Shown: one piece after another, positions 7,365-27,677 of the stretch
How the letters are laid out: every line of letters starts with the position of its first letter
Position numbering within the stretch: position 1 is the first letter of the stretch
Source: an uncultured delta proteobacterium
Lineage (GTDB): Bacteria; Myxococcota_A; Polyangia; Palsa-1104
DNA length: 31,739 bases
Assembly (NCBI GenBank): GCA_963785725.1
Contig: CAWAWS010000042.1
Span: 1-31,739, forward strand
Direction of reading: 5' to 3'
Notes under the pieces: model-generated
Told to the model about the DNA's origin: nothing
The model's input: only the letters and a program-made list of their open reading frames with translations
The model's database searches: none
Position numbers and translations under genes: made by a program

Positions 7365-7373
7365 GAAAGGGCA

Positions 7374-9017: not shown

Positions 9018-9892
9018 AGAGCCTTCGGTCAGCCCGCCTGGTCGCGGTCGTGCTCGTGTCGGCGCTGGTGACGGCGCCGGCGCGCGCGCAGCCGCCGCGC
9101 AAAGCCGCCGAAGCGCGCAAGGCCGCCGAAGCGCGCGACCTCTACGCGCGCGCCATGCGCCACTACGAGCTCGGCGAATACGATCCGGCGATCGAGGACT
9201 TCAAGAAGGCCTACGAGCTGAGCCAAGCGCCCGGCCTGCTGTTCAATTTGGGGCAGGTCTATCGGCTCAAGAAGGATTGGCCGCAGGCGATTCGGCTCTA
9301 TCGCTCCTATCTGCGCCTCTCGCCGCAAGCGAAGAACAAGGCCGACGTCGAGTCGCTGATCGCCGAGATGCAGGCCGCGCTCGACGACGAGCAGCGCAAG
9401 GCCGCCGAAGCCGCCGCCGCGGCCGCCGCGCAACAGGCGCAGGCGCAAACGCAGGCGCCGCCGGTCACGACCACGCCGACGACGCCGGTCACGCCGACGC
9501 CGACGCCGACGGCGGAAGCGATCGCGCCGCCGCCGCCGCCGCCGCGTCCGAAGCACGCCAAGCTCAAGCTGTGGCTGGGCGGCGCGTTCGTCGTCGCCGG
9601 CTTGGGCGCGGTCGGCGCCGGCATCGCGCTCGGCGTGCGCGCGCAGTCGGACTCGCGCAAGCTCGTCGACGCCGCCAACCTCGACAACCAGACGTGGGAC
9701 AGCGCGCGCCAGGCGCTCTATCGCGACGGCCAGCACATGGCGCTCGCCGCGACCACCCTCGACGTCGTCGGTGGCGCCTTCGTCGCCGCCGGTGTCGTCG
9801 TCGGCATTTTGGGACTACGCGATTGGCGCCATACGCGCCGGTTCGCGCTTTTGCCGTCGTCGGACGGCGCTGGAGTCACATGCGCCTTCTAA
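9014..9892 (+). CDS. Signal-peptide TPR protein with C-terminal hydrophobic helices (myxobacterial type)
   Basis: GTG at 9014 overlaps the kinase TGA (GTGA); signal peptide ending APARA; TPR-like ARDLYARAMRHYELGEYDPAIEDFKKAYEL...LLFNLGQVYR; Pro/Thr linker; two Gly-rich hydrophobic segments. Confidence 0.85.
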   Translation: MKSLRSARLVAVVLVSALVTAPARAQPPRKAAEARKAAEARDLYARAMRHYELGEYDPAIEDFKKAYELSQAPGLLFNLGQVYRLKKDWPQAIRLYRSYLRLSPQAKNKADVESLIAEMQAALDDEQRKAAEAAAAAAAQQAQAQTQAPPVTTTPTTPVTPTPTPTAEAIAPPPPPPRPKHAKLKLWLGGAFVVAGLGAVGAGIALGVRAQSDSRKLVDAANLDNQTWDSARQALYRDGQHMALAATTLDVVGGAFVAAGVVVGILGLRDWRHTRRFALLPSSDGAGVTCAF

Positions 9893-10878
9893 CGATCGCC
9901 TTCGCGATGATGACGCTCGCCGGCTGCAACTTTCGTCCTGGTTTAGCCAGCGGCGCCTTCTTCTGCGGCACCGGCAGCGCCTGTCCGCCCGGCCAATTCT
10001 GCGCCGGCGACGGCCGCTGCTATGCCGACGGCCATGCGCCCGACATGCTCGGCGGCGGCGTCTGCCTGCCGATGAGCTGCTCGGACCAGGGCAAGAACTG
10101 CGGCGCCGTGTCCAACGGCTGCGGCGCGACGATGAGCTGCGGCAGCTGCGACGCGCCCAACACCTGCGGCGGCGGCGGTCCCGACAACGTCTGCGGCTGC
10201 ACGTCGACGACGTGCGCCAAGATGGGCTGGAACTGCGGCACCGCGCCCGACGGCTGCGGCGGCACGCTCGACTGCGGCGGCAGCTGCACGGCCGGCCTCA
10301 CCTGCGGCGGCGGCGGCATGGTCAACGTCTGCGGCTCCGGCGTCTGCGTGGCGACGACGTGCCTCGCCGCCAAGGCCAACTGCGGCACCATCAGCGACGG
10401 CTGCGGCGGCACGCTCGACTGCGGCATGTGCACGCCGCCGCAGACCTGCGGCGGCGGCGGCGTCAGCAACGTCTGCGGCTGCACGGCGACGAGCTGCTCG
10501 GCCAAGAGCAAGAACTGCGGCACCATCCCCGACGGCTGCGGCGGCTCGCTCGACTGCGGCAACTGCGCCGCGCCCGCGACCTGCAGCAACGACAACCAGT
10601 GCACGTGCACGCCCACGACCTGCAACGCGATGGGCTGGTGCGGCACGGCGCCCGACGGCTGCGGCGGCACGCTCAACTGCGGCGGCTGCATCCTCTCGTC
10701 GTGCGGCGCCGGCGGCCAGAACAAGTGCGGCCTCGGCGGCTGCACGAAGACGACCTGCAAGGCGCAGAACAAGAACTGCGGCACCATCAGCGACGCCTGC
10801 AGCGACGTCCTCAACTGCGGCACGTGCCCGACCGGTCAAGTCTGCGGCGGCGGCGGCATCGCCAACGTCTGCGGCTGA
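9880..10878 (+). CDS. Cys/Gly-rich repeat lipoprotein
   Basis: ATG 9880 after GGAG; lipobox LAGC; six ~45-aa repeats with core CGxxxDGCGGxLxCG. Confidence 0.88.
   Translation: MRLLTIAFAMMTLAGCNFRPGLASGAFFCGTGSACPPGQFCAGDGRCYADGHAPDMLGGGVCLPMSCSDQGKNCGAVSNGCGATMSCGSCDAPNTCGGGGPDNVCGCTSTTCAKMGWNCGTAPDGCGGTLDCGGSCTAGLTCGGGGMVNVCGSGVCVATTCLAAKANCGTISDGCGGTLDCGMCTPPQTCGGGGVSNVCGCTATSCSAKSKNCGTIPDGCGGSLDCGNCAAPATCSNDNQCTCTPTTCNAMGWCGTAPDGCGGTLNCGGCILSSCGAGGQNKCGLGGCTKTTCKAQNKNCGTISDACSDVLNCGTCPTGQVCGGGGIANVCG
10075..10875 (+). repeat. Six degenerate intragenic repeats encoding Cys-rich modules
   Basis: Recurrent AACTGCGGCACC...GACGGCTGCGGCGGCACGCTCGACTGCGGC blocks (e.g. ~10231, 10378, 10513, 10638). 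Confidence 0.8.
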
Positions 10879-10957: not shown

Positions 10958-12220
10958 ATGATGGCGGGGTTGCCCGCGCTGCTCCTCATCATCGGCTCGT
11001 TCGCGCTCATCGGGAGCTTCAACGCGCTGCGCCCGCGCTATTCGCCGGCCGGCCTGGCCGCCGTCAGCTTCTTCGCCGGCTGGCTCACGGGCGAGCTGGC
11101 CGCGCACCTCTTGGTCATCGACGTCGCCGTCGTCGCCGCGCTCGTGTGGCACGGCGCGCTCGCCGCCTGGCAAGGGCAGCTCGGCTTGGCGCTCGATCTC
11201 GTCGCCGTGTCGCTCCTGCTCGTCGCCTGCACGCGCAGCTTCGCCAGCGCCGCCATCGTCACCACCGCGCTCGCCGACGTGGCCCTCGACCAAGCGCCGC
11301 GCGAGCGCGACTTGGGCCAGCTGTTCATGCCCTTTCCGGTGCGCGATGGACGCAACGAGCGGCTGCGCAACATCGTCTACCACAGCGACGAGAACGTGAC
11401 CTTGCGGCTCGACGTCTTCCGGCGCCGCGGCGAGGGCTACGGCGCGCACAGCAAGAGGCCGGTGTTGCTGTTCGTCCATGGCGGCGGCTGGATGATCGGC
11501 AACAAAGAGTACCAAGGCCTGCCGCTCCTCAACCGCTTCGCCGCGCGCGGCTGGGTCGCCTTCTCGATCAACTATCGCTTGAGCCCGCGCGCGACGTTCC
11601 CGGCGCACGTCATCGACGTCAAGCGCGCCATCGCCTGGCTGCGCGCGCACGCCGCGGAATATGGCGGCGATCCCGACTGCATCGTCATCGCCGGCAACTC
11701 GGCCGGCGGCCACTTGGCGTCGCTGGCGGCGCTGACGCCGAACAAGCGCGAGTGGCAGCCCGGCTTCGAGGCCGTCGACACGTCGGTCACCGCCTGCTTG
11801 TCGTTCTACGGCGTCTACGACTTCACCGATCAACACGGCCACTGGCCCAACCGCGGCCTCAACGGGCTGCTCGAACGCTACATCATGAAGGCCAAGCGAA
11901 AAGACGCGCCCGAGCGCTTCGCCGAAGCCTCGCCGATTCATTGGCTGAGCCGAGAGACGCCGTGTAAGGCGCCGCCGTTTCTCGTCGTCCACGGCACGGC
12001 CGACAGCATCGTGCCCGTCGCCGAAGCGCGGCGCTTCACGGCGGCGTTGAAGGCGTGCGGGCACGAGAAGTTCGCCTATATCGAGCTGCCGGGCGCGCAG
12101 CACGCGTTCGAGATCTTCCCGTCGCTGCGCACGTTCGCGGTCTTGCGCGGCGTCGAGCGCTTCGCGCAGCAGGTGCTCGACGAGCGCGCCGCCGCGAGCG
12201 ACGACGGCGCGTCCGTTTAG
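10958..12220 (+). CDS. Membrane-anchored alpha/beta hydrolase, HSL-family esterase/lipase
   Basis: HGGGW oxyanion motif, GNSAGG nucleophile elbow, VHGTADSIVP (Asp), GAQHAF (His); N-terminal hydrophobic helices. Confidence 0.9.
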   Translation: MMAGLPALLLIIGSFALIGSFNALRPRYSPAGLAAVSFFAGWLTGELAAHLLVIDVAVVAALVWHGALAAWQGQLGLALDLVAVSLLLVACTRSFASAAIVTTALADVALDQAPRERDLGQLFMPFPVRDGRNERLRNIVYHSDENVTLRLDVFRRRGEGYGAHSKRPVLLFVHGGGWMIGNKEYQGLPLLNRFAARGWVAFSINYRLSPRATFPAHVIDVKRAIAWLRAHAAEYGGDPDCIVIAGNSAGGHLASLAALTPNKREWQPGFEAVDTSVTACLSFYGVYDFTDQHGHWPNRGLNGLLERYIMKAKRKDAPERFAEASPIHWLSRETPCKAPPFLVVHGTADSIVPVAEARRFTAALKACGHEKFAYIELPGAQHAFEIFPSLRTFAVLRGVERFAQQVLDERAAASDDGASV

Positions 12221-12259: not shown

Positions 12260-12700
12260 CTACAGCTTCTGCGGCGATGGACGGACGCGCGCTTGCAGGC
12301 GGCCGTCGTCGGACGGGCCGAAGCCGCGCCGCTGCAGCCACGCCGTCACCACCGCCGCGCGCGGATGCGTCGGCCGCACGACGTTGGTCAGATAATTGAG
12401 CCCCTGTTGCGCCGCCTCGACGTGCAGCTGCGCGAGGATGAAGCTGCCCACGCCGCTCGACGCGCTCGCCGGCTCGACCGCCAACAGGATCTCGGCGTCG
12501 CCCCAGTTGGCGTCGAGCCAGCCGTAGCCGACGACGCGGCCGCCGCCGTCCTCGACGCGCCACCACTCGGCGGGCACGAGATCGCCGGGGCGCAGCTGGC
12601 GATAGCGGTTGTCGAAGATGCCGGGCTCGCACTGCCCGACGATGCGCGCCTTGTCGGCGTCCCAGCGCGCCGTGGTCTCACGAAGCCACTTCCAGCTCAT
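12260..12700 (-). CDS. GNAT family N-acyltransferase
   Basis: Starts MSWKWL at 12700, overlapping the PPTase stop (ATGA); VVGYGWLD...LAVEPASASSGVGSFIL...WLQRRGF. Confidence 0.78.
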   Translation of the reverse strand: MSWKWLRETTARWDADKARIVGQCEPGIFDNRYRQLRPGDLVPAEWWRVEDGGGRVVGYGWLDANWGDAEILLAVEPASASSGVGSFILAQLHVEAAQQGLNYLTNVVRPTHPRAAVVTAWLQRRGFGPSDDGRLQARVRPSPQKL

Positions 12701-13389
12701 GCGCCATCCTCCATCGTCGACCAAACCACCGCTGAAGCGCGCGCTCCGTCGACGTCGAGCGCGAGCCGGCACTCCCCGAGCTCCTGCGTGTGAATGCGAT
12801 TGGACTGCAGATCGATGCGCAAGGGAACCATCGTCGGCAAGGGCGCGCGCAGGCCACACTGGGCGAGCTTGAGCAGCGCCTCTTTGACGCACCAAGCGGC
12901 GGTTACGACGCGCGGGTCTGCGCTCGAACGGCCGAGCGCGCGCGCCCAAGCGGCGAGCTCGCCGGCGGCGAAGGCTTCGGCGGCGAAGCTCGGATGGCGC
13001 GGCTCGACCGCCTCGATGTCGACGCCGACGCGCACGCCGCGACCGGCGACGGCGACGGCCCAGCCGGCGCCGTGCGCGATCGACAGCGCGACCGGCGACG
13101 AGTCGCGAGCGAATCCGCCGCCGTCGTGGACGCGCGGCGCACCGGCCGCGGCGCCGTCGGGCTCGGGCAGCACGCAGGCCGACGCGGGGACGCCGAGGCG
13201 CGCCAACGCGCGGCGGGCGGCGACGCGACCGGCAACGAAGTCGACGCGCCGCTTGTCGACGGTCAAGGCGGCGGCCAGCGCGCGCTCGCGCGGATGCAGG
13301 TAGCGCGCGGCGAACCAGTCGGCGTGGCGGCGCACGCGCGCCAACGCGACACGGGCGTAGACGAGCGGCGCCGGCCGATCAGCCGTCAT
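12697..13389 (-). CDS. 4'-phosphopantetheinyl transferase, Sfp-type
   Basis: Motifs FVAGRVAARRAL, LSIAH, VGVDIE, WCVKEALLK; start overlaps the end of PKS2. Confidence 0.9.
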   Translation of the reverse strand: MTADRPAPLVYARVALARVRRHADWFAARYLHPRERALAAALTVDKRRVDFVAGRVAARRALARLGVPASACVLPEPDGAAAGAPRVHDGGGFARDSSPVALSIAHGAGWAVAVAGRGVRVGVDIEAVEPRHPSFAAEAFAAGELAAWARALGRSSADPRVVTAAWCVKEALLKLAQCGLRAPLPTMVPLRIDLQSNRIHTQELGECRLALDVDGARASAVVWSTMEDGA

Positions 13390-16300
13390 GGGCCACGCTT
13401 TCGAGCCGGCGCAGCTGCAGCCGCGTCAACGTGAAGAGCACGTCATCCTGGGCGCGCGCCACGACGTCGTAGAAGATCTCGCGATCACGCGCTTCGACGA
13501 CGTCGGCGATCACGATCACGGGCGTCGCCGGCGGTCGCGCGGCATAGAGCGTCAGCGCTTGGAAGCCGATCGGAATGGCGATGAAGCCGGACGGGCCGGC
13601 GGCGTCCCAATTGCCGGCCACTTGGAAAGCGGCGTCGAGCAGCAGCGGATCGACGGCAAAGTGCGGCGCGGTCGTGAACGCGAACAGCGCGCGCGCGTCG
13701 GGCGGACGCACCTGACCGACGCAGCCGCGCTCCGTCCGCGCGATCCAGTCGACGTGCCGAAAGAGCGGACCGAGCGACACCGGCGCGCGCAGGCGATCGA
13801 AGCGCGACGGTTGGCGCAGCTCCGACGGCGGCAACGGCGGCGGCGTGTCGAATGGCGGCGGCGGCGGCGCGCCGAAGACGACCCGGCCGCGATAGTGCCG
13901 ATCGCGCTGCGACAGCGCGCCGCCGGCGACGACGTCGACGACGGCGCGACCATCGGCGTGCCGCTCGACGACGCGCGCCTCGGTGTGCACGAGCGGCGCG
14001 GCGCCCGGCGGCAGCTTCACCGGCGACAGGATCGCAAAGTCGGTCAGGCCGCGCAGCGCGGCGCCGGGCAGGAGCAGCCGCGCCGCTTCGGCGAGCAGCT
14101 CGACGGCGAACGCGCCGGGCACGATGGGCACGTCGTCGAGCCGATGCTGGCGCAAGAAGAGGTCGCGGTGATCGTCGAACGTGCGCGCGATCGTCAGGCG
14201 CGGCGGCGTGTGGTCGGCCGCCGGCGCCGACGGCGGCAAGACCGCGTCGCACAACGGCCAAGCGGCCTGCACGAGCGGCTGGCCGCGATCGTCGACGGCG
14301 CTCGGCTGCGCGGCCGCGCCATCGCGCACGTGCGCGGCGAACGGCCACGACTCGGCTTGCGTCTCGGGACAGACCACGAGCTCGTGATCGCCGTGCGCGC
14401 CGTGGGCCAGCTCGTCGACGAACCAGCGGCGACCCTCGGCGGGCGTGATGGCGGCGACGCCCGCCTGCTGCAGCCGCTCGGCGGTCGCGGCTTCGGCGGC
14501 GGCGCCGACCTCGGCCCAGGCGCTCCAGTCGAGCGTCACGCAGCGGGTCGACGGTCGCGACGGCGCGGCGGCGGCGAGCAGCTTGGCCATGGCGTCGTTG
14601 GCAGCGCAGTAGTCGGCCTGGCCGCGATTGCCGAGCCGGCCGGCGATGGAGCCGAAGGCGACGAAGAAGCGCAAGGGATCGCGCTCGCTGTGCGTCAACA
14701 AGCTTACGAGCCCGCCGACCTTGACGCGCACGGTGGCGTCGACGACGGCGAGCGCTTTGTCGGGCAGCGCGCGCGATTCTTCGACCATGGCGCCATGGAC
14801 GATGCCGTCGATGCGGCCGTGGCGCTTGCGCACGGCGGCGAGGAGCGCGGCGCACTCGGCGTCGTCGGCGACGTCGGCGGCGCGATATTCGATGGCGCTG
14901 CCGGCGGCGGCCAGATTGCGCGCCAAGAGCCGCGTGTTGGCGATGGCGCGCCACTGTTGCGCGAACTTGACCGGCGTCAGCGTCGGATCTTGGCGACGGC
15001 GGCGCGTCAGCTCTTCGCGGCGCAAGGCTTCGAAGGCCGCGTCATCGTAGTCGACGAAGGGCTCGTCGCCGCGCGGCTTGGGCGTGCGCCCGCTGACGAC
15101 GCAGATGGCGCCGCGCTCGGCCAACGCGCGCGCGCACTCGAAGACGACGCCGCGCCCGCCGCCGGAAAAGACGACGACCGCGCCCGGCTCGACCGCGAAC
15201 GCCGGCTCGCCCGCGAACGCCGGCTCGCCCGCGAACGCCGGCTCGCCCGCGAACGCCGGCTCGGCCGCGGCCGAATCGGCCGCGAACGCCGGCTCGCCCG
15301 CGAACCCCGGCTCGGCCGCGAACGCAGGCTCGTCGGCGGCCGAATCGGCCGCGATCGTCAGCGGCGCCGGCCGCAACACGGGCACGAGGCGCCGGCGCGT
15401 GAAGTAGCCGACCTCGACCCGATCGCCGCCCGCCTCCAGCTCGCCGACGACGCTGGCGGCGATGAAGCGCGCGTCCTCCTGCGCGTCGAAGTCGATGGCG
15501 CGCGCGACCAGCCCCGGCCGCTCCTGCTTGAGCCCTTTGGTGAAGCCGGTGAGCGCGCCGCCGCTGCCGACGCGCGCGCCCGCCGCCGCGACGAAGCCGA
15601 GCCCGCCGCCCATCGCCGTGAGCGCCAGGTAGACGCCGGCGGCATCGGCGCGCGCGTCCCAACGCGGCCACAACGCGCGCGCCGTCGCGAACGCGCGCCG
15701 CGTCGCCGCCAACGCGGCGTCGGCCGGCGACGCCACGCCCGCGCCATCGAGCTCGACGGCGTCGATCGCGCCAATGATGTCGTCCGTCATCATTGATATC
15801 AGCCGCGCCTGCAAGTCGTCGACCGACGCATTGACCGCCACTTGGCAGCGCACGACCGGCCAATCGGCCGCCGCGAGCGCGGCCGCGATGGCGACGTAGT
15901 TGCGACCGCGCGGATCGCCCAGCAGCAGCAACGCCCCCGGCCGATGCGGCGACGGCGCCGGCCGGGTCAGCGGCACCAGCTCCACCCGCAGCCGCTGCGC
16001 CACCCGCTGCGGCTGCGCCGGGTGCGCCGGCATCGCCTGCTGCCGCGCCGTCCGCCGTGACGACGTCGTTTGCGACGGCTGCGGCGACGACGTTTGCGCC
16101 TGCCCCGTCTGTCGCGTCCTTTGCGCCTGCCCCGTCTGTCGCGTCGTTTGCGTCTGCGCCGTCTGTCGTCCCGGCAACGGCGCGCGCCGCTCGGCCGCGG
16201 TCACGCGCTCCTCGAGCACGACGTGCGCGTTCACGCCGCCGAGCCCGAAGGCGCTGACGCCCGCGCGGCGCGGCTGCCCTGCCGGCGGCGGCGGCCACGG

Positions 16301-18985
16301 CCGCGCGACCGTCGCGATCGCCAGCGGACCGTCGTGCAGCGCCTGATGGTCGGCGTGCAAGCGGCCGCGATGACGCATCGGCGGCAGCGTCCGCTCATGC
16401 AGCGCCAGCGCCGTCTTGATCAGCCCCGCCATCCCCGCCGCCGACGACAAGTGCCCCACGTTCGACTTGATCGATCCGAGCGCGATGGGTGTTTGCCGCG
16501 CGCGCTCGGCGTAGATCGCGCCGTACGTCTCGAGCTCGACGGCGTCGCCGGCGCGCGTGCCCGTGCCGTGCGCCTCCAAGAGGTCGATGCTGGCGGGCGC
16601 GACCTGCGCGACGCGATAGGCGCGCGCCAACGCGCGCTGCTGGCCGCGGCTGTTGGGCGCCAAGAGCGCCGTGCCGCGGCCGTCGGACGAGCAGGCGCTG
16701 CCGGCGACGAGCGCGTAGACGCGGTGGCCGTCGCGCTCGGCGTCGCCGGCGCGGCGCAGGACGACGGCGCCGGCGCCTTCGGCCGGGACAAAGCCGTCGG
16801 CGTCGGCGTCGAACGGCCGCGATCCGCCGGCGGCCAGCGCGCCCAACGTCGCCAGGGCCACGTAATATTCGGGAAAGAGGTTGTACGCCGACGCGGCGAC
16901 GACGACGGCATCGAGCTCGCCGCGCAACAGCGCGCCGACGCCGAGATGCAGCGCCACCAGCGACGACGCGCACGCGGCATCGACCGCTTGAGCGCCGCCG
17001 CGAAAGTCCCACAGCGACGCCACGCGCGTGGCGCAGCCGAGGCTCGACAGCTGCTCGAGCGTCTCCTCCGACGACGGCGCGAGCGACTGCGTCAGGCGCG
17101 CGGCAAAGGCGGTGACGACGGCCGCGGTCGTGGCGGGGTCGACGCCGGCAGCGGCGAGCACGCGCTCGACGAGCGCGCGGCTGCGCGCGGCCAAGGCGCG
17201 CCGCTCGGCCTCGTATTCGCGTTCGCGCAGCGGCAAATGGCCGACGATGACGCCGACGCGCCGCGCGTCCCAGGCGCCGGGGCGATAGCCGGCGTCTTCG
17301 AGCGCGGCCGCGCAGGCGTCGACGGTGAGCACGACGGCGCCGTCGACTTGGCGCGCGGCCACGGGCGGCAGGCGCAGCCGCGCGGCATCGGCGTCGAGCG
17401 CGGGCAAGAGGCCGGCCAGCGTCGAGCGCACGGCGCCGGACACGCCCGCGGTCGCCGCCTCCAGAAACGCCGCGGCGTCCCAGCGTGCGGGCGGAATGTG
17501 GCCAATGGCGTCGCGACCGTCGAGCACGCCGCGCCACAACGCGCGCGCATCGGGCGCGCCGGGCATGACCGCGCCTACGCCGACGATGGCGACGCGACGA
17601 TCGCCCCAGCGCGACGCCGGCAAACGCGGCGCGGCCGGCGCCGGCTGGCGGTCGTCGGCGCGCGCCAAGATCGCGACGTGCACCACGGCGCCATGGCCGG
17701 GCACGCTCACGGCCGCGCGCCGAACGCCGCCGAGCGCGCCCGTTCGCAGCCGCACCGATCGCGCGTCGTCGGCCGGCTCGTCCCACACGCGCGCGTCGCC
17801 GCCGGGTCGCTGGCCGCGCTCGAGCGCCAAGGCCGCCGTTACGACGCCGAGCAGGCCCGAGGCCGCGCCCAAGAAGCCGAACGTCGCCGTCGCCGTCGCC
17901 ACGCCGAGCGGTTGCGGGCGCGCGCCGCCGAACGTCGCCGCCAACGCCCGGCGCTCCACCTCGTCGACGACGCCGAGGCCGGCCGCTTGGCATTCGACGT
18001 AGTCGACGCTGGCGGGATCGAAGTGCGCGCCCGTCAATGCCTGCCGCGCGGCGCGCGTCAACGCCGGCTCGGCCGCGACGGCGACGCTCTGCCGGCCGAT
18101 CGACGCCTGCCCGACGCCGCGCACGACCGCGCGCACGCGGCGCGCCTGCGAGCGGGCGTCGGCGTCGCGCATGAGGACGAGCGCGAGCGTGCCTTCGCCG
18201 AGCAGCGTGCCGTCGGCGCCGTGCGACGTCGCGAACGGCTGCAGCGCCGCGGCCGACGACAACAGGCGCCGCTGCCGATAGGCCTGCACGACGGTGGCCG
18301 CCAAGAGCGGCGACAGCGCGCCGACGACGGCGACGTCACACTCGCGCGCGTCCAGCGCCGCGACCGCGGCCGCCAGCGCCGCCAACGCCGAGGCCGCGCC
18401 GGCATCATGCGCGAAATGGCCGGCGCCGAGGTCGAAGGCGTTGGCGAGCCGGCCGGCCGTCATCGCCGCCGTCGTCATGAGCGAGTCGACGCTGATGGGC
18501 GGCGCCGCGGCGTCGAGCGCGCGCAGGGCGGCGTCGAGCGCGGCCGCCGGCAACGCCCCACCCGTCGCGCATAGCGCCGCCATCGTCTCGTGCAGCCGCA
18601 CGCGCGCCAAATGATCGACGGCCGGATCGAAGCCGAGCGTCGTCGCCGCCATGTGCACCGACGTGCGCGCGCCCCATGAGCCCGGCTGGCCCAGGCCGGC
18701 GTCGTCGAGCGCGTCGCGCAGCGCGGCCAAGGTCGCCCGCTCCATGCGATGCATGCGCTCGAGCTGCGCCGGCGGAATGCGAAAGGCGCGAAAATCGACG
18801 GTGTAGTCGTCGATGAGCCGCGCGCGCGGCGGCGGCCCGAAGGCGCGCGGATCCCAGCGTTCGGGCGGCAGCGGCGGAAACTCGGGCGGCGCCGGCTGCG
18901 CCAGCTGCGCCCACAATTCGTCGACGGTGCGCGCGCCCGGCAGTCGGCAGCCGATACCGATGATGGCCGCGTCCGCCTGCGCCAT
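13379..18985 (-). CDS. Pfa-like type I PKS subunit 2: inactive KS - KS - KR - DH (no AT, no ACP)
   Basis: KS0 has DAGAASA/ECQAAG/TFGFL (triad lost); KS has DAACASS/EAHGTGT/KSNVGHL; KR has SGGGRGV and FGSIAGRLGNRGQADYCAAND; DH has FLRQHRLDDVPIVPG and LLDAAFQ. Confidence 0.9.
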   Translation of the reverse strand: MAQADAAIIGIGCRLPGARTVDELWAQLAQPAPPEFPPLPPERWDPRAFGPPPRARLIDDYTVDFRAFRIPPAQLERMHRMERATLAALRDALDDAGLGQPGSWGARTSVHMAATTLGFDPAVDHLARVRLHETMAALCATGGALPAAALDAALRALDAAAPPISVDSLMTTAAMTAGRLANAFDLGAGHFAHDAGAASALAALAAAVAALDARECDVAVVGALSPLLAATVVQAYRQRRLLSSAAALQPFATSHGADGTLLGEGTLALVLMRDADARSQARRVRAVVRGVGQASIGRQSVAVAAEPALTRAARQALTGAHFDPASVDYVECQAAGLGVVDEVERRALAATFGGARPQPLGVATATATFGFLGAASGLLGVVTAALALERGQRPGGDARVWDEPADDARSVRLRTGALGGVRRAAVSVPGHGAVVHVAILARADDRQPAPAAPRLPASRWGDRRVAIVGVGAVMPGAPDARALWRGVLDGRDAIGHIPPARWDAAAFLEAATAGVSGAVRSTLAGLLPALDADAARLRLPPVAARQVDGAVVLTVDACAAALEDAGYRPGAWDARRVGVIVGHLPLREREYEAERRALAARSRALVERVLAAAGVDPATTAAVVTAFAARLTQSLAPSSEETLEQLSSLGCATRVASLWDFRGGAQAVDAACASSLVALHLGVGALLRGELDAVVVAASAYNLFPEYYVALATLGALAAGGSRPFDADADGFVPAEGAGAVVLRRAGDAERDGHRVYALVAGSACSSDGRGTALLAPNSRGQQRALARAYRVAQVAPASIDLLEAHGTGTRAGDAVELETYGAIYAERARQTPIALGSIKSNVGHLSSAAGMAGLIKTALALHERTLPPMRHRGRLHADHQALHDGPLAIATVARPWPPPPAGQPRRAGVSAFGLGGVNAHVVLEERVTAAERRAPLPGRQTAQTQTTRQTGQAQRTRQTGQAQTSSPQPSQTTSSRRTARQQAMPAHPAQPQRVAQRLRVELVPLTRPAPSPHRPGALLLLGDPRGRNYVAIAAALAAADWPVVRCQVAVNASVDDLQARLISMMTDDIIGAIDAVELDGAGVASPADAALAATRRAFATARALWPRWDARADAAGVYLALTAMGGGLGFVAAAGARVGSGGALTGFTKGLKQERPGLVARAIDFDAQEDARFIAASVVGELEAGGDRVEVGYFTRRRLVPVLRPAPLTIAADSAADEPAFAAEPGFAGEPAFAADSAAAEPAFAGEPAFAGEPAFAGEPAFAVEPGAVVVFSGGGRGVVFECARALAERGAICVVSGRTPKPRGDEPFVDYDDAAFEALRREELTRRRRQDPTLTPVKFAQQWRAIANTRLLARNLAAAGSAIEYRAADVADDAECAALLAAVRKRHGRIDGIVHGAMVEESRALPDKALAVVDATVRVKVGGLVSLLTHSERDPLRFFVAFGSIAGRLGNRGQADYCAANDAMAKLLAAAAPSRPSTRCVTLDWSAWAEVGAAAEAATAERLQQAGVAAITPAEGRRWFVDELAHGAHGDHELVVCPETQAESWPFAAHVRDGAAAQPSAVDDRGQPLVQAAWPLCDAVLPPSAPAADHTPPRLTIARTFDDHRDLFLRQHRLDDVPIVPGAFAVELLAEAARLLLPGAALRGLTDFAILSPVKLPPGAAPLVHTEARVVERHADGRAVVDVVAGGALSQRDRHYRGRVVFGAPPPPPFDTPPPLPPSELRQPSRFDRLRAPVSLGPLFRHVDWIARTERGCVGQVRPPDARALFAFTTAPHFAVDPLLLDAAFQVAGNWDAAGPSGFIAIPIGFQALTLYAARPPATPVIVIADVVEARDREIFYDVVARAQDDVLFTLTRLQLRRLESVAHDG
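15184..15353 (-). repeat. 18-bp tandem repeat array encoding (AGEPAF)n inside the PKS2 KR region
   Basis: Repeated CCGGCTCGCCCGCGAACG units with two AADSAA spacers. Confidence 0.85.
16091..16170 (-). repeat. 27-bp x3 tandem repeat (RQTGQAQ-like) in the PKS2 KS-KR linker
   Basis: TTTGCGCCTGCCCCGTCTGTCGCGTC occurs twice exactly and once degenerate. Confidence 0.8.
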
Positions 18986-18988
18986 CGC

Positions 18989-21900
18989 TTAACGCGGGCC
19001 TCGCACCCGATCTTGCAGCGACTGACAGAAGCGCGCCCACGACACCTCGTCGAGCCGCTCCGTCTCCATGTCGACGACGCGCTCGAGCCGCATCATGCGC
19101 AGGCCGCGCAGCTGCATGAGCGGCGCGCGATCGGCCCCGAGCAGGAACAGATCGCAGAAGACGCCGTCCGTCGTCGAGGCGCGCAGGCGCACGTGGCATT
19201 GCACCTCTTCGTCTTCGCCGGGCGCGCGGCCGAGCGCGAGCTGCTCGATGCCCATGGGCACGCCGCGCTGTCGCGTCAGCGCGTACCAGCCGAAGCCGGC
19301 GAGCATGAACGCGCACTCGAGCACCGCCGGCGCCAGCACGAAGCGCGGCGTCCGCGGCGGCTCGAACAGCGCCTCGGACTCGGCGCGAATGCCGCCGATG
19401 AGCTCGCAGAACGACAGCGAGCGCGCCCACACGCAGCCGCCCAGCGTTTCGCCGAGGTGCAAGGGGCCGTCGGCGGCGACGGCGTGGCCGTTGCGTCCGT
19501 GCGCGCTGCGGCGATCGAACGCGCGGGCGACGTCGCGCGGCAGCGGCAGCGCGGCGCCGCCGGCCGGATGCAGCTCGGCGCCAAAGCGCACTTTGGGCGC
19601 GCCGCCGGCGACCTCGGCGAAGAGCGTGGCCAAGACGCGCTCGCCGACGCGCTCGGCCTCCAGGCGCACGGCCAGCTGGCCGTCGGCATCGAGGAACAGC
19701 GGTCCGGCGGCGCGCAGCTCGGTGGCGCCACCGACGGGCACGCCGAGGAGCAGCTCGGCGGCCTCGGCCAGCGCTTCCCACGCCAGCGCCGAGGGCACGA
19801 ACGCGCGTCCGTCCACGAGCGAGTCGCGCAAGTAGGGATCGGTCGCCGGCGCGAACAGCCGCTGCGCGACCAGCTGCTCGCGGTCGCGGGTGACGACGCG
19901 GCCGATGAGCGGATAGTCCGACTTCGACGTCGTCCACGCCATGCCCGACGAGCGCGCGATCGACAGCGGCGCCGCGACGACGCCATCGCCGGCCGCCGCG
20001 CTCGCTCGTGGCGCGCCATTTCTGTGCGCGGCCGCGTTCGCCGCGCCACTCCGGTGCGCGCCGTTGGCCGCCGCGCCCTGGCCGACCGCGGCAGCGGCCA
20101 CCGTCGCGACATGGGCCGCGGTCGCGCCGTTCGTCGCCGCGTGCGTCGCGTTATTGGCCGGCCGGCTTCCGGTCGCCGACAGCGTCGTCGCCGGCGCCAC
20201 CTGATCGGTCGCCGTCGCCACCTGCGCGGCGTTGGCGTGCGCGCTGCCGTTCTTCGGCGTCCGCGCCGCCCCGCCGTTCGCAGGCTCGTGCGCCCCATTC
20301 GCCGGCGGCGTCATCGTGCCATGTGGCTGCGTTGTCGCGCCTGGTGGCTCCGTCGTCGCCCCATGTGCCGGCGCCGTCGTCGGCTGCTGATCGACCCGCG
20401 CGACCAGGCGCTCGATGACCTTGCGCAGCGTGTTCAGCTGCCGCATCGACACGCCCTCTTCCCGCGCCAAACCGAGCTCCTCCCGCACGCGCGCGAACAC
20501 CTCCACCTGCTTGACCGTGTCGATGCCCAAGTCGCCTTCGAGGTCGAGATCGAGCTCCAGCATCTCCGTCGGATAGCCGGTGCGCTCGGCCAGCGCCGCC
20601 ACCATCAGGCGGCGCACGCGCTCGAACGCGTCCCCGGCGCGCTCGCCTCGATCGACTTCCGGCTTCGACATCGTGCTCGTCTCCTCCAAATCCGCCATCG
20701 GCTCGAGCGCGCCCGCTTCCGCGACGAACGCGCAGCCGATCAGCCGCAACAGTTGTTGTCGTTCCCCCACTTTCGGATGCATGGCCGCCTGCGAAATAAA
20801 TCGACGCCCGGCGAGGATCTCGCGCACGTAGCTCGTCAGCGGCCACTTCGGCCCGGCCTCGAAGAAGCGGCGCGCCCCGCGCGTCCAGGCCGCTTCGATG
20901 GCGGCGGCGAACTGCACCGGTGTCGTATATTGCCGCACCAAACGCGCGATCGTCGCCTCCACGTCGTCGTCGTAGACGGCCAAGTCGACGGTCGAGATCA
21001 CCGTCGCGCGCGGCGGCCGCCAGTCGAGCGTCGTCAGGACCGCGCGATAACGCTCGGCGGCGGCGGCGATGAGCGGCGAATGGTAGGCGTGCGAGACCGT
21101 CAGCGGCACCAGCTCGACGTCGGCCGCGAGGCAGCGCTCGGCCAGCGTCGCCATCGCCGCCGAGTCGCCCGACGCCAGCGACGAGCTCGGGCAGTTGTCC
21201 GCGGCGACGACGACGGTGCCGGCGATTCCGGCGACGAGAATCGCCGAGGCGCGCGGCCGAGCAGGCGACGGCGGCCATGCGACCCGAGTCGGCGAGCGGC
21301 AACGCCAGCACGGCGGCGGTGCGCGCGGCAATGGCGCGCAGGCCGTCGGCGAAATCGAGCGCGCCGGCGGCGACGAGCGCGGCCAGCTCGCCGGCGCTCT
21401 GCCCGATGTACAGCTCGCCGGCGAGGCCGAACGACGCCAACAGCGCCTGCAGCGCGCAGCTGACGGTGAAGACGGCGGCGTGCAGATCCTCGTGCGGCGG
21501 CGGCGCGCTCGCGTCGTCGGGCCACAGCGCCGGTCGCAGCGGCCGGCCGACCAGCGTCTGCCACACGGCGTCCGCGCGATCGAGCGTGCGCGCGACGATG
21601 GGATATCCCGCCGCCAGCGCGCGGGCCATGCCCGGATATTGTGGGCCTTGGCCGGGAAAGAGGAGGACGCGCGGACCTTCGAGCCGCGCCGACGACACGA
21701 ACAGCCCCAGGCGATCGAGCGGAACCGCCGGGCGACCGGGCGCGTTGGCGTGCACGAGCTGCTCGGCGCGCCTTTCGAGGTCGGGCGCCGACGTCGCCGT
21801 CAACGCCAGGCGCGCCGGCGCGTGCGGGCGCGTCATGGCTTCGGCGCGCGTGCGCTCGGCGGCGTCGGCGAAGTCCTCGGGCGAGCACTCGGCCAGCATG

Positions 21901-24839
21901 GCCGCCAGCGCCGTCAGCGCGTCGAGGCCGTCGGCGACGGTGGCGCCGGCGAACGCGAACAGCTGCGCGTCGCCGCGGTCGGGCTCGCTCGCGCGCGGCG
22001 CGCCGTCGAGCCGCGGTGGGCTGCGCTCGCCGCCGTCGGGCTCGCTCGACTGCTCGCTCGGCGCGCCGGCCCGCTCCTCCTCGAGGATGGCGTGGAAGTT
22101 GGAGCCGCCGATGCCGAACGCGCTCACGCCGCCGCGGCGCGGCGCATCGGTCGGCGCCCAGGTCTGCCGCACGCGCACGACCTCGAGGCCGGCGGCCGCG
22201 AAGTCGATCTTCGGGCTCGGCTCGTCACAATGCAGCGACGGCGGCAGCTCGCCCGCTTGCAACGCCAACACCACCTTCTGCAGCGCCGGCGCGCCCGCCG
22301 CGGCGACGAGGTGACCCAAGTTCGACTTCACGGTGCCGATGCGCAACGGCGTCGTGCGCGCGGCGCCGCCGTAGGTGCAGGCCAGCGCCATGGCCTCGAC
22401 CGCGTCGCCGACGGCGGTGCCGGTGCCGTGGCATTCGACGTAGTCGACGCTGGTGCCGGCGATTCCGGCCGAGTCGAGCGCGCGCTGCAGCGCCAAGCTC
22501 TCGCCGTCGACGCTGGGCGTGAGCACCGAGCGGCCCTTGCCGTCCGACGAGCCGGAGCAGCCGCGCACGAGCGCGCGAATGCGGCGCCCTTGGCGGCGCG
22601 CGTCGCCGGCGCGTTCGAGCACGAGCACGCCCGCGCCTTCGCCGGGCACGAAGCCTTGCGCGCGCGCGTCGAAGGGGCGAATGCCCGCGGGCGACAGGCC
22701 GTTGAAGCGCGACGTGGCGACGTAGAACTCGGGCGCGATGTCGCACCAACCACCGCCGACGACGGCCAGGTCGCAGCGACCGAGCCGTAACGCTTGCGCG
22801 CCGGCGTGCAGCGCCGCCAGCGTCGACGCGCACGCCGATTCGACGGCGACGTGGCCGCCGCGCGCGCCGAGCGCCGCCGCGACGCGTGCCGCGGTCACGC
22901 TGCCGAGCCAACCGGTCAAGGAGTGCCGGTCGAGCGCCGGCAGCCGCTCCGTCCACGCGCGCTCGGCCTCGTCGACGATCGCCTGCACGCGCGGCTCCGG
23001 CACGTGGTCCGCGCGCAGCGTCTCGGCGAGCGCGGCGGCGAATTCGGCGAAATTCACCCGCGCTTCGGCCAGCCAGCGCCGATGGACGAAGGGCATGGCC
23101 GCGATGAACACCTGCACGCGCGCCGCGTCCACCGTCGGCGCGCCGGCGTCGCGCCACGCCGCGCCCGCCGCGCGGGTGACCAGCAGCTGCGTCGGATCGA
23201 TCTGACCTCGCGCCGCGCGCTCGTGCTGACCTCGCGTCGTGCGCCCGTGCTGCCCACTCGCCGCGCGCTCGTCGTCGGTCGGCTGCGGCAGGTCGACGAA
23301 CGAGCCCATGCGCGCGACCGACTTCTCGCGCGCTTTGCCGTCGGTCGAGTAATAGCGCTCGAGCGGCCAGCGCGACTTGGGCACGTCGACGACCTGGTCG
23401 CGACCGGCGAGCAGGTTGTCCCAGAGCTGCGTCAGATCGGGCGCGCCCGCGAAGATGCCGCCCATGCCGACGATGCCGAGCGGCGCGAACGAAAACGGTG
23501 GCGCGCCGGCGTTTGCGCGCGTCGTCGCGGCCGTCGTTCGCGCGGGCGCGCTTTCGAGGACGGCGTGGAACGTCTGACCGTCGAGCGCGATGGCGGTCAC
23601 GCCGGCGCTGGCCGCGCCGTCGGGCCACGCCGTCGCGGCGTCGCCGGCTGCGGCCGCCGGCAAGCGCCGATGATGCAGCGCCAGCGCCGTCGAGACGAGC
23701 CCGGCCGCGCCCGCGGCCGCGCGCAAGTGGCCGACACGCGCTTTGACCGCGCGCAACGCCGGCGCCGCCGCGCCACCGACGACGGCACGCAAGGCCTCGG
23801 CTTCGGCGCGATCGGCCGCGCGAACGCCGCTCGCGTGACACTCGAACAGCCGCGCCTGCGCCACGTCGCGTCCCGCCGCCGACCAGCCGGCGCGCACGGC
23901 GGCCGCGATCGTCTCGCTGTCCGCCGCAAACGGCGGCGCGCCCGCAGCCGCGCTGGCGCGACCGACGGAATGCACGACGGCGAAGATCGTGTCACCTGAC
24001 GCCACCGCATCGTCGAGCCGCTTCAAGGTCAAGACGGCCGCGCCTTCGCCGAGGACGAGGCCGTCGGCGTCGGGTGACAGCGGCCGCGCCTGTCCGGTCG
24101 GCGACAGCACGCCGAGCGCGGCATACGCGGCCAGCTCCGTCGGCGTCAGCAGCTCGGAGACGCCACCGACGAGCGCGCAATCCCACTCGCGCTCGTGCAA
24201 GCCGGCCAACGCCAGCTCCAGCGCCGCCAACGCGGACGCGTGATCGGCATCGACGGCGTAATGCGGCCCATATAGATCGTGGTGCATCGCGATGCGCGCC
24301 GCGGCCACGCTGCCGAGCGAGCCGACGACGTCGTCGCTCGACGCTTCCAACAGACGCGACCGCAAGAGCGCCAGCGCGTCGTCGGCCAATCGTGCGCGCG
24401 CGTCGCCGGCGAGCGCGGCGAACGTCGGGCTCGCCGCCAACGCGTCGGCGAGATCGGCGGCGCGCATGCGCAAACCGACGTCGCGCTGCAGGCCGAGGCC
24501 GCTTGCGCCGAGCAGAATCGCCGTGCGCTCGCGTGGAATGGCGCGCACGCCGGCGAGCGCTTGCGTGCCGGCTTCGAGCGTCGCCAGCTGCATGCGGTTG
24601 ACGGTCGTGGCATCGGCGGGCGGCAGCCGATACTTGCGCCAGTCGAGCTGCCAGCCGCCGAGCCAGCCGCCGACGATGCTCTTTCCCAAGCGAGCGTAAC
24701 GGTCGGCGACGAACCCGTCTTCGTCACGCACCGGTCGGAGCGCGGTCCGACCGGCCGAGAGGTTCTCCCAGAGCTGCGCCCACGATGCGGCGCCGGGCAA
24801 AACAGCGCCCACGCCGACGATGGCGACTGGAGAACTCAT
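18989..24839 (-). CDS. Pfa-like type I PKS subunit 1: inactive KS - KS - AT - ACP(Thr) - degenerate DH (+1 frameshift at ~21245)
   Basis: ORFs 20151..24839 and 18989..21331 join within the AT (GRMAAVACSAARL/AILVAG). KS0 DADHASA; KS ESACAST/ECHGTGT/KSNLGHL; AT FPGQGPQY, GQSAGE, VSHAYHS; ACP LDLDLEGDLGIDTVKQ; C-terminal DH-like YLRDSLVDGRAFVP. Confidence 0.88.
23202..23272 (-). repeat. 24-bp x3 degenerate repeat (ERAAxGQH) inserted in the active KS of PKS1
   Basis: Protein ERAASGQHGRTTRGQHERAARGQ; DNA units CTGACCTCGCG...CGTG. Confidence 0.6.
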
Positions 24840-24903: not shown

Positions 24904-25485
24904 TTAATGGTACCGAACCTCACAATGCAGCTTGAATAGCTCATCGCGTCCATCCGAGCGGCCTTCGGACCAGGTGCCGGCGATGGTGCCGCGAACGTCA
25001 CGTCCGCCCGCCAGCTCGATCGCCGCCGGCACGAAGCCGCGCCAGGCGCCCGAGCTCCATTCGAGCAGCCGCTTGGGAATTCCGGTGCATTCGCCCAAGT
25101 AGTAACCCTGGTCGTTTCTGATGGCGACCGCATCGCCGAAGTGGACGTAGGTGCTCCACAGTCGCGGGGTGAACCCCATGACGCGCACCGGTGCCGCGAT
25201 GCGCAGAAAGATGCGATACATCGTCGTCAGATCTTTGAGCGCGTTGAGGCGCGTGATCTCCATCGTGATGTCTTCGACGGTCTTGCGCAGCTCCTTCGCC
25301 ACCTGGTCGAGCACGTCGTTGAGCGGCTCGACGTTGTACCAAGCCACCGGCATCAGCACCGACTGGTACTCGGGATCGCTGGTGGCCGCGACGAGCTTCT
25401 TGAAGCTGCCCGGGCCCAGCCGTTCGTCGATCCACTGCGCGGCCATGACCACGTGGGACCCTTTGCACTTGTAATCGGGTTTCAT
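24904..25485 (-). CDS. Myxobacterial H-NOX/V4R-like (TIGR02265/DUF2378-like) putative ligand-binding protein
   Basis: N-terminal KGS, WIDERLG...LMPVAWY motif, C-terminal WSSGAWRGF...ELAGG and beta strands; typical codon bias. Start 25485 or 25506. Family call is from pattern recognition. Confidence 0.6.
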   Translation of the reverse strand: MKPDYKCKGSHVVMAAQWIDERLGPGSFKKLVAATSDPEYQSVLMPVAWYNVEPLNDVLDQVAKELRKTVEDITMEITRLNALKDLTTMYRIFLRIAAPVRVMGFTPRLWSTYVHFGDAVAIRNDQGYYLGECTGIPKRLLEWSSGAWRGFVPAAIELAGGRDVRGTIAGTWSEGRSDGRDELFKLHCEVRYH

Positions 25486-25626
25486 GGCGAGTCGATATCG
25501 TATCATATCCCGCGAGCTTCATCGACCGTCGCTGTCTTGCAAATTGCGAATGCGACCTCAGGCGCTTGCAGTAGTGAAGGCTCATAAGCGGCTGGCTGCG
25601 CGGCGTCGACTGTTGCAAAATGCAGT

Positions 25627-27677
25627 ATGCGGCGCGAATCGGCCGGACTAACCCTCGCCGTCGTTAGCGTCGTCACGCTCATCTTCGGGCTCGCCTATCT
25701 CGACCTCCGGCGCGAGCAGGCGCGCGCGCTCGACGAGTTCACGGCCGAGCAAGCGGCGCTGTCGGCGACGTTGGCGGCGACGCTGTCGCGACGGCTGGAT
25801 TCGGTCGAGCGCGACTTGGGCGTGTTGGCCGCGATCGGCGACGGGGCCGCCGCGCTGCCGGCGTTGCCGCTGCTCGTCGACGGCAAGAGCGCCTATCGCG
25901 AGGTCGAGCTGCTCGACGAGCGCGGGCAGCCGCGCGCCGAAGCCCACTTGGGCGGCGCCGCGCTCGACGACGATCGCGCGCTGGCGGACGTGCGCGCGCG
26001 TTTGTGGTCGGCGACGGCGGCCGATGGTCACGTGCGCGTGTCCGATCCGCTCGGCGTCGCGCCCGGTCGGCTGCGGCTGTTCTTGCGTCGCGACGCGCAC
26101 GCGGCCGTCGCCTTGTGGGCCGACACCAATCGCTTCTTCGACGGCGTGCGCCAAGCGGCGTTCGAGACATCGCCGGCGCCGATGAGCTGGCTGGTGATGG
26201 ACGAGCAGCGCCGCACGGTGCTGTTCAGCTTCGGGGCCGACCATCAGATGCCGTGGCACACGACGTCGTGGCAGCCGGAGACGGCGCCGGCGGAGCTGCA
26301 GTCGATGCTGGCGGCGATGGCGGCGGGCGAACGCGGCACGCGCTTCCTCAACCGGCCGTCGGCGGTGGCGGTCGGGCTCGAGCGACGCGTGGCCATGGCC
26401 GGGTTCGCGCCGGTGCATCGCCGCGCGGGAGACTGGTCGGTCGCCGTCGTGGCGTCGGCGAAGGCGGTGCGCGATCGGGCGCGCTTTGCCGTGTGGCGAC
26501 TGGGCGCGGCGACGGGATTGACGGCGCTGTTGGTGGCGCTGTTCGCGGTCATGGTGGCGCGACAGCAGCGGCGCACGCAGGCCTTGGGGACGAAGCTGGA
26601 GCTGGCGGAAGCGACGGCCGCGTTGCGTGAGCGCGCGGAGACGATCGTCGAGCGCATTCCCGTCGGCGTGATGGCGATCGACGGCGACGGGCAGGTGCGC
26701 GCGGTCAATCCCTACTTGGCCGAACGCGGCGCGCGGCCGTCGGGCGCGTTGGCGGAGGCGCTCGCCGGCCTCCTGCCCGACGAGCAGGCGCTCGTGACCG
26801 CGCTGTGGACGGCGGCGCGCGCCGATCGCCAGCCGCGCGAGCGCGCCGGGCTGCGCCTGCATCTCGGCGGCGCCGCGCGCGACGTCGACGTCTTCGTCGT
26901 GCCGCTGGCGCGGCCACTGCCCGACGCCGACTGCTTCGTCGTGCTGCACGATCGCACGACCTTGCGGCAGCTCGAGCGCAACCTCGTGCGCGCCGAGAAG
27001 CTGGCGACGATCGGGACCTCGTCGGCGGGCGTCGCGCATGAGGTGGGCACGCCGCTCGGCATCATCTCCGGTCGCGCCGAGCAGCTGTTGGCGCGCGCCG
27101 ACGACGAGGTCGTGAAGAAGGGGCTGTCGTCGATCCTCGACCAGGTGGACAAGATGTCGACGACGATTCGCCAGCTGCTCGACTTCGCGCGCGCTCGGCC
27201 GGTCGAGGTCGAGGCGGTCTCGGCGGCGCACGCGCTCGGTCAGGCGGCGGCGCTGCTCGATCATCGCTTCCGCCAGGCGAATGTCGCGCTGTCGGTCGAG
27301 GCGGCGCCGTCGTTGCCGCCCTTGGCCGCCGATCGCGGGCAGCTCGAGCAGGTGCTCGTCAACCTGCTCATCAACGCCTGCGACGCCTGCGGCAAAGGCG
27401 GCGCCGTCGTCGCCCGCGCGCATTCGGCGACAGCCGAGAACGAGCTCGTGCTCGAGGTCGCCGACGACGGCTGCGGCATTCCGCCCGAGCAGCTCGCCGC
27501 CGTCTTCGATCCCTTCTTCACCACCAAAAAGCGCGGCCAAGGCACTGGGCTCGGCCTCATCGATCGCCGCCGACATCGTCAAGAACCACGGAGGCCGCTT
27601 GATCCTCGATTCGCAGGTGGGCACGGGAACGCATCGCGCGCGTCTATTGGCCGCGGGCGCGCGAGGCACAGTCGTGA
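25627..27677 (+). CDS. Membrane sensor histidine kinase with periplasmic (Cache-like) and PAS-like domains (+1 frameshifts at ~27559 and ~27632)
   Basis: Two TM helices; H-box AGVAHEVGTPL; N-box QVLVNLLINACDA; G1 DDGCGI; F-box FDPFFTTK; G2 GTGLGL. Corrected end IARVYWPRAREAQS* with TGA overlapping the next GTG. Confidence 0.9.

Follow-up and report, generated by a model that had tools for sequence, protein, structure and literature searches.

Contig CAWAWS010000042.1, from an uncultured delta proteobacterium of the Myxococcota, carries on its minus strand two polyketide synthase (PKS) genes, here called PKS1 and PKS2, followed by genes for an Sfp-type phosphopantetheinyl transferase (PPTase) and a GNAT-like protein. 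The window analysed is the complete 31.7-kb contig; its source assembly (8.9 Mb) is 88% complete. Reading from sequence, we consider it reasonably probable that PKS1 and PKS2 form a two-subunit, likely iterative synthase related to the Pfa systems, with threonine carriers likely armed by the adjacent PPTase and a long-chain unsaturated or hydroxylated lipid as the likely product. The split layout, with an inactive and an active ketosynthase (KS0-KS) on each chain, is by itself of moderate interest; the main point is an invariant threonine at the carrier site, shared with a wider clade. The genes, in transcriptional order, are as follows (KS, ketosynthase; AT, acyltransferase; ACP, acyl carrier protein; KR, ketoreductase; DH, dehydratase; KS0 and DH0, forms that have lost catalytic residues).

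18989..24839, minus strand: PKS1, about 1947 aa if read through, KS0-KS-AT-ACP-DH0, with a frameshift within the AT in this assembly
13379..18985, minus strand: PKS2, 1868 aa, KS0-KS-(structural KR subdomain)-KR-DH, with neither AT nor ACP
12697..13389, minus strand: Sfp-type PPTase, 230 aa, GxD.E and WxxKEA motifs, Pfam ACPS and 4PPT_N
12260..12700, minus strand: GNAT-like gene, 146 aa, weak Pfam GNAT matches, translationally coupled to the PPTase in the window

PKS1 and PKS2 are separated by 3 nt (18988-18986), PKS2 and the PPTase gene overlap by 11 nt (13389-13379), and the PPTase and GNAT-like genes share an ATGA overlap (12700-12697). These coordinates agree with the four coupled genes described in the initial annotation, which had, however, taken PKS1 as a single open reading frame (ORF) and passed over a one-base frameshift in the AT. 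This frameshift, at about 21240-21250, splits PKS1 into ORFs of 20151-24839 and 18989-21331, and both the third-position GC signal and the AT match change frame there. It is likely an assembly error or indel, since fabH, fabD, fabG and fabF of the source assembly are each frameshifted too, an 82%-identical PKS1 relative (P0121) is intact across the site, and three independent contigs (two public soil runs of one study) cross it with one base fewer. One of these contigs differs from the window at just 5 other positions over 252 bases. Frame switches were also found in three of the five other window genes tested. Single-base indels are frequent in the source assembly, in the fab genes (G000:C5:235500-240500) and in window genes for a histidine kinase (25627-29024), an RND-like transporter (1991-5354) and a Ser/Thr kinase (7281-9900); its broken genes are not to be taken as pseudogenes.

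Domains and catalytic residues of the two chains

Pfam recovered two KS stretches, an AT, a PP-binding domain and a DH in PKS1, and two KS stretches, a KR and a DH in PKS2. Together with the PPTase, this matches the domain content first proposed, including two KS folds on each chain. Catalytic residues were compared across 19 PKS1 and 23 PKS2 sequences picked from the matches by architecture, some rows being close kin; three duplicates of fetched loci and variant architectures were excluded. Counts below refer to this alignment.

23544..24836, minus strand: PKS1 KS0, Cys replaced by His in the window copy; Cys in 0/19, first His (His1) in 15/19, Lys in 15/19, second His (His2) in 18/19
22071..23489, minus strand: PKS1 KS, C670, H804, K838 and H843, each kept in 19/19
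20747..21695, minus strand: PKS1 AT, GQSAGE, Arg and HAYHS, interrupted by the frameshift at about 21240-21250
20384..20623, minus strand: PKS1 ACP, Pfam PP-binding over cut-off, Thr codon ACG at 20518-20516, motif LGIDTVKQ
19070..19915, minus strand: PKS1 DH0, PKS-type DH fold without catalytic His or Asp, PKS_DH_N and PS-DH over Pfam cut-off
17657..18979, minus strand: PKS2 KS0, lacking Cys, His1 and His2; predicted to pair with the adjacent KS much as a chain length factor (CLF) does
16202..17602, minus strand: PKS2 KS, C672, H806, K840 and H845, each kept in 23/23
14366..15181, minus strand: PKS2 KR, K1422, S1446, Y1459 and N1463, each kept in 23/23
13388..14260, minus strand: PKS2 DH, H1614, P1623, D1784 and Q1788, each kept in 23/23

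The active KS, KR and DH domains thus keep every catalytic residue listed, and the two KS0 domains have diverged in different ways. At the cysteine position of the PKS1 KS0, the rows hold Phe (10), His (6), Tyr (2) or Gly (1). In the PKS2 KS0, no row retains Cys, Lys or His1, and almost none retains His2. The AT retains its Ser, Arg and His, with a family signature of GQSAGE plus H(A/G)YH or RAYH; a bulky Tyr stands where malonyl ATs have Phe, by a specificity rule that we presume applies here. The DH is intact in PKS2 alone, as initially proposed, with H-P-D-Q complete; the PKS1 DH0 has its catalytic His in 0/19 rows, nine of which are gapped at that column, and is followed C-terminally by a conserved W..F motif. 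By domain content, neither PKS1 nor PKS2 alone encodes a full cycle, and since neither chain can complete the cycle alone, functional cooperation between them is expected.

PKS2 of the window also contains AGEPAF-like short tandem peptide repeats between the structural and catalytic KR parts (window about 15180-15370, residues 1210-1270), as well as Q/T-rich linkers; neither was seen in relatives.

An AlphaFold model of the PKS2 KS0-KS didomain (pLDDT 89.9, pTM 0.94) had as its top Foldseek match the PfaC KS-CLF structure 6riw, over the full length and with a TM score of 0.78 in both directions, whereas all other chains among the matches listed scored 0.38-0.44 (query-normalised). Because the 6riw KS pairs by sequence with the second KS here, the order is reversed relative to PfaC. 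Each KS0-KS pair is thus predicted, from the model, to be a one-chain pseudo-dimer like the PfaC KS-CLF with the inactive half first. Against this, AlphaFold may yield a KS-CLF-like dimer through likeness to solved structures.

In a FastTree phylogeny of 168 KS domains (457 columns, modular KSs as root, without enediyne PKS (PKSE) sequences), the active KSs of both chains grouped together (0.988), apart from the clades of PfaA-like, type-R-like and PfaBC KSs. The KS0s grouped with CLF-like domains (0.975), where long-branch attraction is possible. The joint clade of active KSs is consistent with a KS0-KS synthase that was duplicated and whose other domains were shared out, in an order of events that we infer: the two didomains likely arose by duplication, after which one copy lost KR and DH activity and the other lost AT and ACP.

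Distribution and neighbourhood of the gene pair

In the window, as in L013, L015, L016, L047, G419, G585, G652 and G679, PKS2 comes immediately after PKS1; G703 has both genes on separate contigs. A strict first look, giving a floor, found full-length PKS2 in at least 2 of 40 related genomes (G015, G035) and in 0 of 14 from the same family. A KS0 profile search, scoring the best four candidates per genome, had matches in 8 of 401 genomes of the class, the window's own counted. A genome-collection scan added a family member in a Sandaracinus metagenome-assembled genome, and a metagenome scan at least one family locus, on one contig, among the 20 matches listed. Full-length relatives from protein searches carried the source names Anaeromyxobacter dehalogenans 2CP-C, Archangium lipolyticum, Archangium minus, Cystobacter fuscus DSM 2262 and Polyangiaceae. 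Class-centred searches gave 2 of 182 (both long ORFs of one-gene size) and 0 of 107, a family census among 50% representatives was dominated by modular PKS matches, and a plasmid search held no family member in 31 records, its H2 being an ordinary Pfa-like pair with serine ACPs. Judged from these sequences, the split layout is a real family, patchily distributed across several families of organisms. With family members named from cultured myxobacteria, the product would be accessible by knockout.

Family PKS1 proteins carry one to four ACPs (47 copies in 22 proteins). The single ACP initially described therefore holds for the window copy and not for the family, P0121 having two. Of the eight loci whose sequence continues past PKS2, seven have the PPTase directly downstream of it; in G585 it is on the opposite strand.

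Two loci weigh against the reading as a conserved two-subunit synthase. No adjacent PPTase was found in G652, and in G015 (L013:13490-19201) PKS1 lacks its KS0-KS half, which was not found elsewhere in that 98%-complete genome; an FG-GAP repeat gene on the other strand occupies its place. Decay therefore occurs. This truncation, the absence of full-length PKS2 from the 14 same-family genomes, the AT frameshift and one ACP fewer than in the closest relative are what could be expected if the window copy were a pseudogene, or if the layout were a decayed or misassembled ordinary pfa locus. We regard this as very improbable: essential fab genes of the same assembly are frameshifted too, three contigs lack the extra base, and intact pairs that keep every catalytic residue are found in several families. 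The possibility of a one-off decay or misassembly, which the initial annotation had itself raised, thus fell away.

The GNAT-like gene had been put forward as a dedicated part of the cluster. It was absent from all six other informative loci (with sequence past the PPTase or PKS2), tblastn matching the window alone among the loci fetched, and was ruled out as a member of the unit. On the upstream side, a further gene, passed over in the initial annotation, probably belongs to the conserved unit, as judged from its recurrence.

24904..25506, minus strand: upstream gene, 200 aa, 64 nt upstream of PKS1 on the same strand

A gene of about 200 codons lies directly upstream of PKS1 in eight of the nine loci with an intact upstream side. 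Six loci have a divergent TIGR02265-type gene and two have the window's type on the same strand, including L016 with a 56% homologue directly upstream of PKS1; L047 has neither. The 200-aa protein belongs to no Pfam or NCBIfam family, and the atlas places it at 0.91 to DUF2378 and V4R clusters of Myxococcota. A profile-profile hhalign comparison with the TIGR02265-type alignment gave E 9e-4 at a probability of just 22%, and single-sequence hhalign gave no match, so that kinship of the two types is weakly supported. About eight distant paralogues of the upstream gene are spread over the own genome (C20, C7, C27 (two), C30, C8, C14, C3).

Other neighbours differ by locus, with a hydroxylase/desaturase-like gene in L016, a P450 in G585 and a prenyltransferase in G652, and suggest no common tailoring step.

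Threonine at the carrier site

The initial annotation missed the residue at the attachment site of the ACP. The PKS1 ACP has the ACP fold with a hydroxyl residue at the start of helix II, according to Pfam, the atlas (which also gives PP-binding) and an alignment with the PigH ACP (PDB 5y08), in which the window's Thr aligns with the attachment Ser. This residue is Thr in 47 of 47 family ACP copies (22 proteins), within a family motif LGIDTVKQ that compares with LGIDSIKR in the PfaA-like proteins of the set. Across 21 loci, this Thr is encoded 39 times by ACC and 12 times by ACG. An alternative attachment serine was sought across the 47 copies and rejected, no column reaching 30% Ser.

To our knowledge, phosphopantetheine on serine is regarded as universal for carrier proteins, and mining pipelines take a missing serine as the sign of a dead carrier. 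Full-text literature searches, with most subscription papers lying outside them, turned up neither this layout nor a naturally occurring threonine attachment site, which is no proof of absence.

Threonine is not confined to the two-gene family. Among all 160 ACP copies in the set, 109 have Thr and 51 Ser, and Thr-ACPs occur in one-gene synthases of type R architecture, many with a fused PPTase and Thr-only ACPs. The family KR and ACP group with these type-R-like synthases in trees (modest support), and the type-R-like KR shares the HGA.VEES motif with the family. The family PPTases form one clade (0.94) with motifs intact.

In 16 of 16 type-R-like proteins the second KS retains C-H-K-H, and it may be catalytically active as a condensing domain of the FabF-like kind. 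This domain (P0144, P0146, P0164, L058, L069, L070, L079 and others) was called a CLF in a 2011 survey, and has a very long branch.

One-gene synthases of this kind occur in f22, a family of the same phylum in which 0 of 18 genomes at least 95% complete had FabF or FabZ over cut-off, nine having weaker FabZ-like matches. G053 (single contig, 99% complete) has all three of its FabF-model matches within one 3108-aa synthase with three Thr ACPs; FabZ gave no match there, no AcpP exceeded the cut-off, and genes for a biotin carrier and a carboxyltransferase follow the synthase. G360 and G829 have their sole FabF-model matches at E 1e-35 in such an ORF (ACPs read in G360 only). The one-gene Thr-ACP synthase of f22 is thus a candidate for an unrecognised primary fatty acid synthase, and would give a testable answer to how membranes are made in lineages reported to lack type II fatty acid synthesis (FAS II).

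Synthases arranged as KS-AT-ACP3-KS-KR-DH-PPTase, all of whose ACPs carry Thr, lie ahead of biotin-carrier and carboxyltransferase genes at L081:3691-13017 (G053), L083:2825-12073 (G360) and L082:3438-12632 (G215). The free Ser-ACP of G053 (L085:1738-5895) adjoins oxoamine-synthase-like, GNAT-like and NAD-dependent reductase genes, which by eye have the look of a sphingolipid-type cassette.

An alternative is that the Thr-ACPs stay unmodified, as scaffolds or dead domains, and that the chain is instead held in trans by a free Ser ACP, for instance AcpP, which the cluster PPTase would arm. Escherichia coli ACP(S36T), in the source's account, is not modified and fails to support growth (PMC3340395), so threonine is no harmless swap in general; and the window's own genome has six other PP-binding matches, AcpP among them. 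Yet Thr is invariant in 47 copies and amplified up to four times, it is common to one-gene synthases with their own fused PPTase, and G053 has no AcpP over cut-off, its one free Ser ACP adjoining (read by eye) the oxoamine-synthase-like gene. We therefore hold this alternative to be unlikely. Three observations suggest that threonine works here: the PPTase is kept with the synthase, Thr-ACPs recur with fused PPTases, and the f22 genomes, G053 above all, point the same way; phosphopantetheinylation of threonine in the family ACPs is accordingly rated as likely.

Other observations weigh against this reading. An alignment of 15 PPTases revealed no residue separating Thr-linked from Ser-linked enzymes. 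In the other four of the five genomes tested, FabF and AcpP are present in addition to the Thr synthase. Pfam found no ER (enoyl reductase) domain in the G053 synthase, and a PF03060 gene sits elsewhere in that genome. The G053 argument is one that bears on the related one-gene synthase, not on this two-gene cluster. Bradymonabacteria without FabB/F and FabI/L have been proposed to take fatty acids from prey (PMC7460792), a published alternative to the G053 argument. Taking both sides together, our estimate still leans towards a widespread Pfa-type branch, comprising the two-subunit KS0-KS family and the one-gene type-R-like form, that runs on Thr-linked phosphopantetheine from its own PPTases, the one-gene form serving as an unrecognised fatty acid synthase in some Myxococcota lacking FAS II.

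If true, threonine phosphopantetheine would break the serine-only rule for carriers and provide a possibly orthogonal PPTase/carrier pair for engineering, and the two-gene family would join the iterative synthases as a doubly pseudo-dimeric form. Use of threonine by the whole clade would also mean that many synthases have been misjudged as having dead carriers.

Proposed cycle and comparison with known synthases

In the cycle that we propose, the PPTase would attach phosphopantetheine to the ACP threonine and the PKS1 AT would load malonyl, following the specificity rule given above. The PKS1 KS0, with His-Lys-His kept, might then prime the chain by malonyl decarboxylation. KSQ domains and type II CLFs prime by decarboxylation. 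Such a role for the PKS1 KS0 is the weak step of the scheme and counts against it, because His1 is lost in 4 of 19 rows and the CLFs of PfaBC keep these His residues too. The PKS2 KS0 would be structural and might set chain length. Each chain would hold one KS with its own CLF-like partner as one complete condensing unit, so that no KS homodimer would be needed. The two active KSs would divide early and late elongation, by analogy with the proposal for PfaA and PfaC, in which the PfaA KS and the PfaC KS-CLF share carriers (PMC13291983). The PKS2 KR and DH would process chains tethered to the PKS1 ACPs; the subunits would therefore have to meet, possibly through DH0 and DH. Double bonds or hydroxyls would remain unless an ER acted in trans, and the product would be passed to an unlinked acceptor.

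No ER gene and no release enzyme was linked in any locus read, and an unsaturated or hydroxylated long chain is for that reason the most probable product. The main rival on this point is a full machine resembling a fatty acid synthase that recruits an ER encoded at another site of the genome, its product being a very-long-chain membrane lipid that is saturated or in part reduced. PF03060 (FabK/NMO-type) genes occur in all five genomes tested, the window's own included, and the KR and ACP group with type-R-like synthases, which resemble a primary fatty acid synthase in f22 although no ER domain was found there. The missing linkage to an ER gene in the loci read argues the other way, as does the window's own genome, with a complete FAS II and no PfaD over cut-off; we consider this rival possible but doubtful.

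A second alternative for the product is that the second active KS joins two acyl chains in a single Claisen step (mycolate- or olefin-like, head-to-head), with the KR and DH finishing. It would account for two active KSs, the lack of a release enzyme and the presence of at least two ACPs in most copies. The active KSs, however, are sister groups whose C-H-K-H sets are ordinary, Pfa systems normally have two elongating KSs, and the loci read showed neither an acyl-AMP ligase nor an ole-like gene, which makes this route quite improbable.

A BD-FAE alpha/beta hydrolase gene (window 10958-12220, plus strand) is convergent with the cluster; it could release the product, and has no homologue in the other loci fetched.

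The nearest known relatives are the Pfa systems, composed of PfaA (KS-AT-ACPn-KR-DH), PfaB (AT), PfaC (KS-CLF with two DH/I), PfaD (ER) and PfaE (PPTase). The cluster shares with them a PfaA-like KS, an AT, tandem ACPs, a KR, a PKS-type DH, two active KSs and a linked Sfp-type PPTase. TIGR02813 is among the best NCBIfam resemblances, although its scores of 403 and 465 bits fall below the cut-off (1010). The cluster differs from PfaA in placing AT-ACP on PKS1 and KR-DH on PKS2. In the PfaC KS-CLF the active KS comes first, whereas here the inactive half leads and each chain has one didomain. Neither PKS1, PKS2 nor the family matches contain a FabA-type DH/I (PF07977), PKS-type DH being the sole kind present, and no PfaD ER was found in the loci read, the best TIGR02814 match in the 88%-complete own genome reaching 28 bits. 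The family's invariant Thr contrasts with DSIKR in the PfaA-like proteins. The cluster is thus an apparently undescribed variant of the Pfa-type synthases. The initial claim that the layout matches no characterised system agrees with what we found, the KSs falling outside the PfaA, PfaBC and type-R-like clades of a tree without PKSE. The accompanying idea of two active KSs sharing carriers is weakened as a point of novelty, as PfaA/PfaC do so and all 16 type-R-like proteins keep two KSs with C-H-K-H.

The galbonolide PKS is another split iterative system. Enediyne PKSEs such as CalE8 and SgcE resemble the cluster in being iterative and ER-less with KS, AT, ACP, KR, DH and PPTase content, and their product is a polyene. 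They have one chain with one KS and an HMSSI carrier motif, in contrast to two chains, four KS folds and LGIDTVKQ here. Neither a hot-dog thioesterase, such as their partner CalE7, nor an enediyne cassette was seen next to the cluster, be it in the window or at the other loci read. The HMSSI motif is itself unusual, and its Ser attachment was shown by mutagenesis and mass spectrometry (PMC3107222).

Shulse and Allen (2011) gave the type R secondary-lipid synthase as KS-MAT-CLF-ACP3-6-KR plus PPTase with an unknown product, and the words threonine and serine are absent from the main text on type R (PMC3098273). The type-R-like proteins, which were matched by architecture, named type R proteins lying outside the set, resemble the cluster in their Thr-ACP motif, in HGA.VEES of the KR and in having a PPTase that is linked or fused. 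Unlike type R, the cluster has two genes and another domain order, and its KSs fall outside the type-R-like KS clade (of a tree without named type R proteins). The type-R-like second KS follows the AT and keeps C-H-K-H, and the AT has GHS/HAFH as opposed to GQS/H(A/G)YH here. Hgl (type F) and Ars (type P) are likewise split Pfa-like synthases, for long alkyl chains (PMC3098273); HglC, however, is KS-CLF-AT, and neither a Thr-ACP nor a KS0-KS tandem on each of two chains has been described for them. An unknown type I PKS cluster reported from Archangium and Melittangium is a possible counterpart; its gene list, in the part covered, names different neighbours and no PPTase (PMC12766979). The swf system, as far as its source was covered, was set aside as unrelated (PMC3908369).

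Other tandem-KS architectures appeared among the matches (P0018, P0039, P0047, P0071, P0072, P0131, P0133, P0137, P0145, P0240), with two active KSs in a row, or three to four KS folds and a DH. The ACPs of these variants are part Thr and part Ser, and P0071 and P0137 are tandem-KS forms with a C45-family acyltransferase domain.

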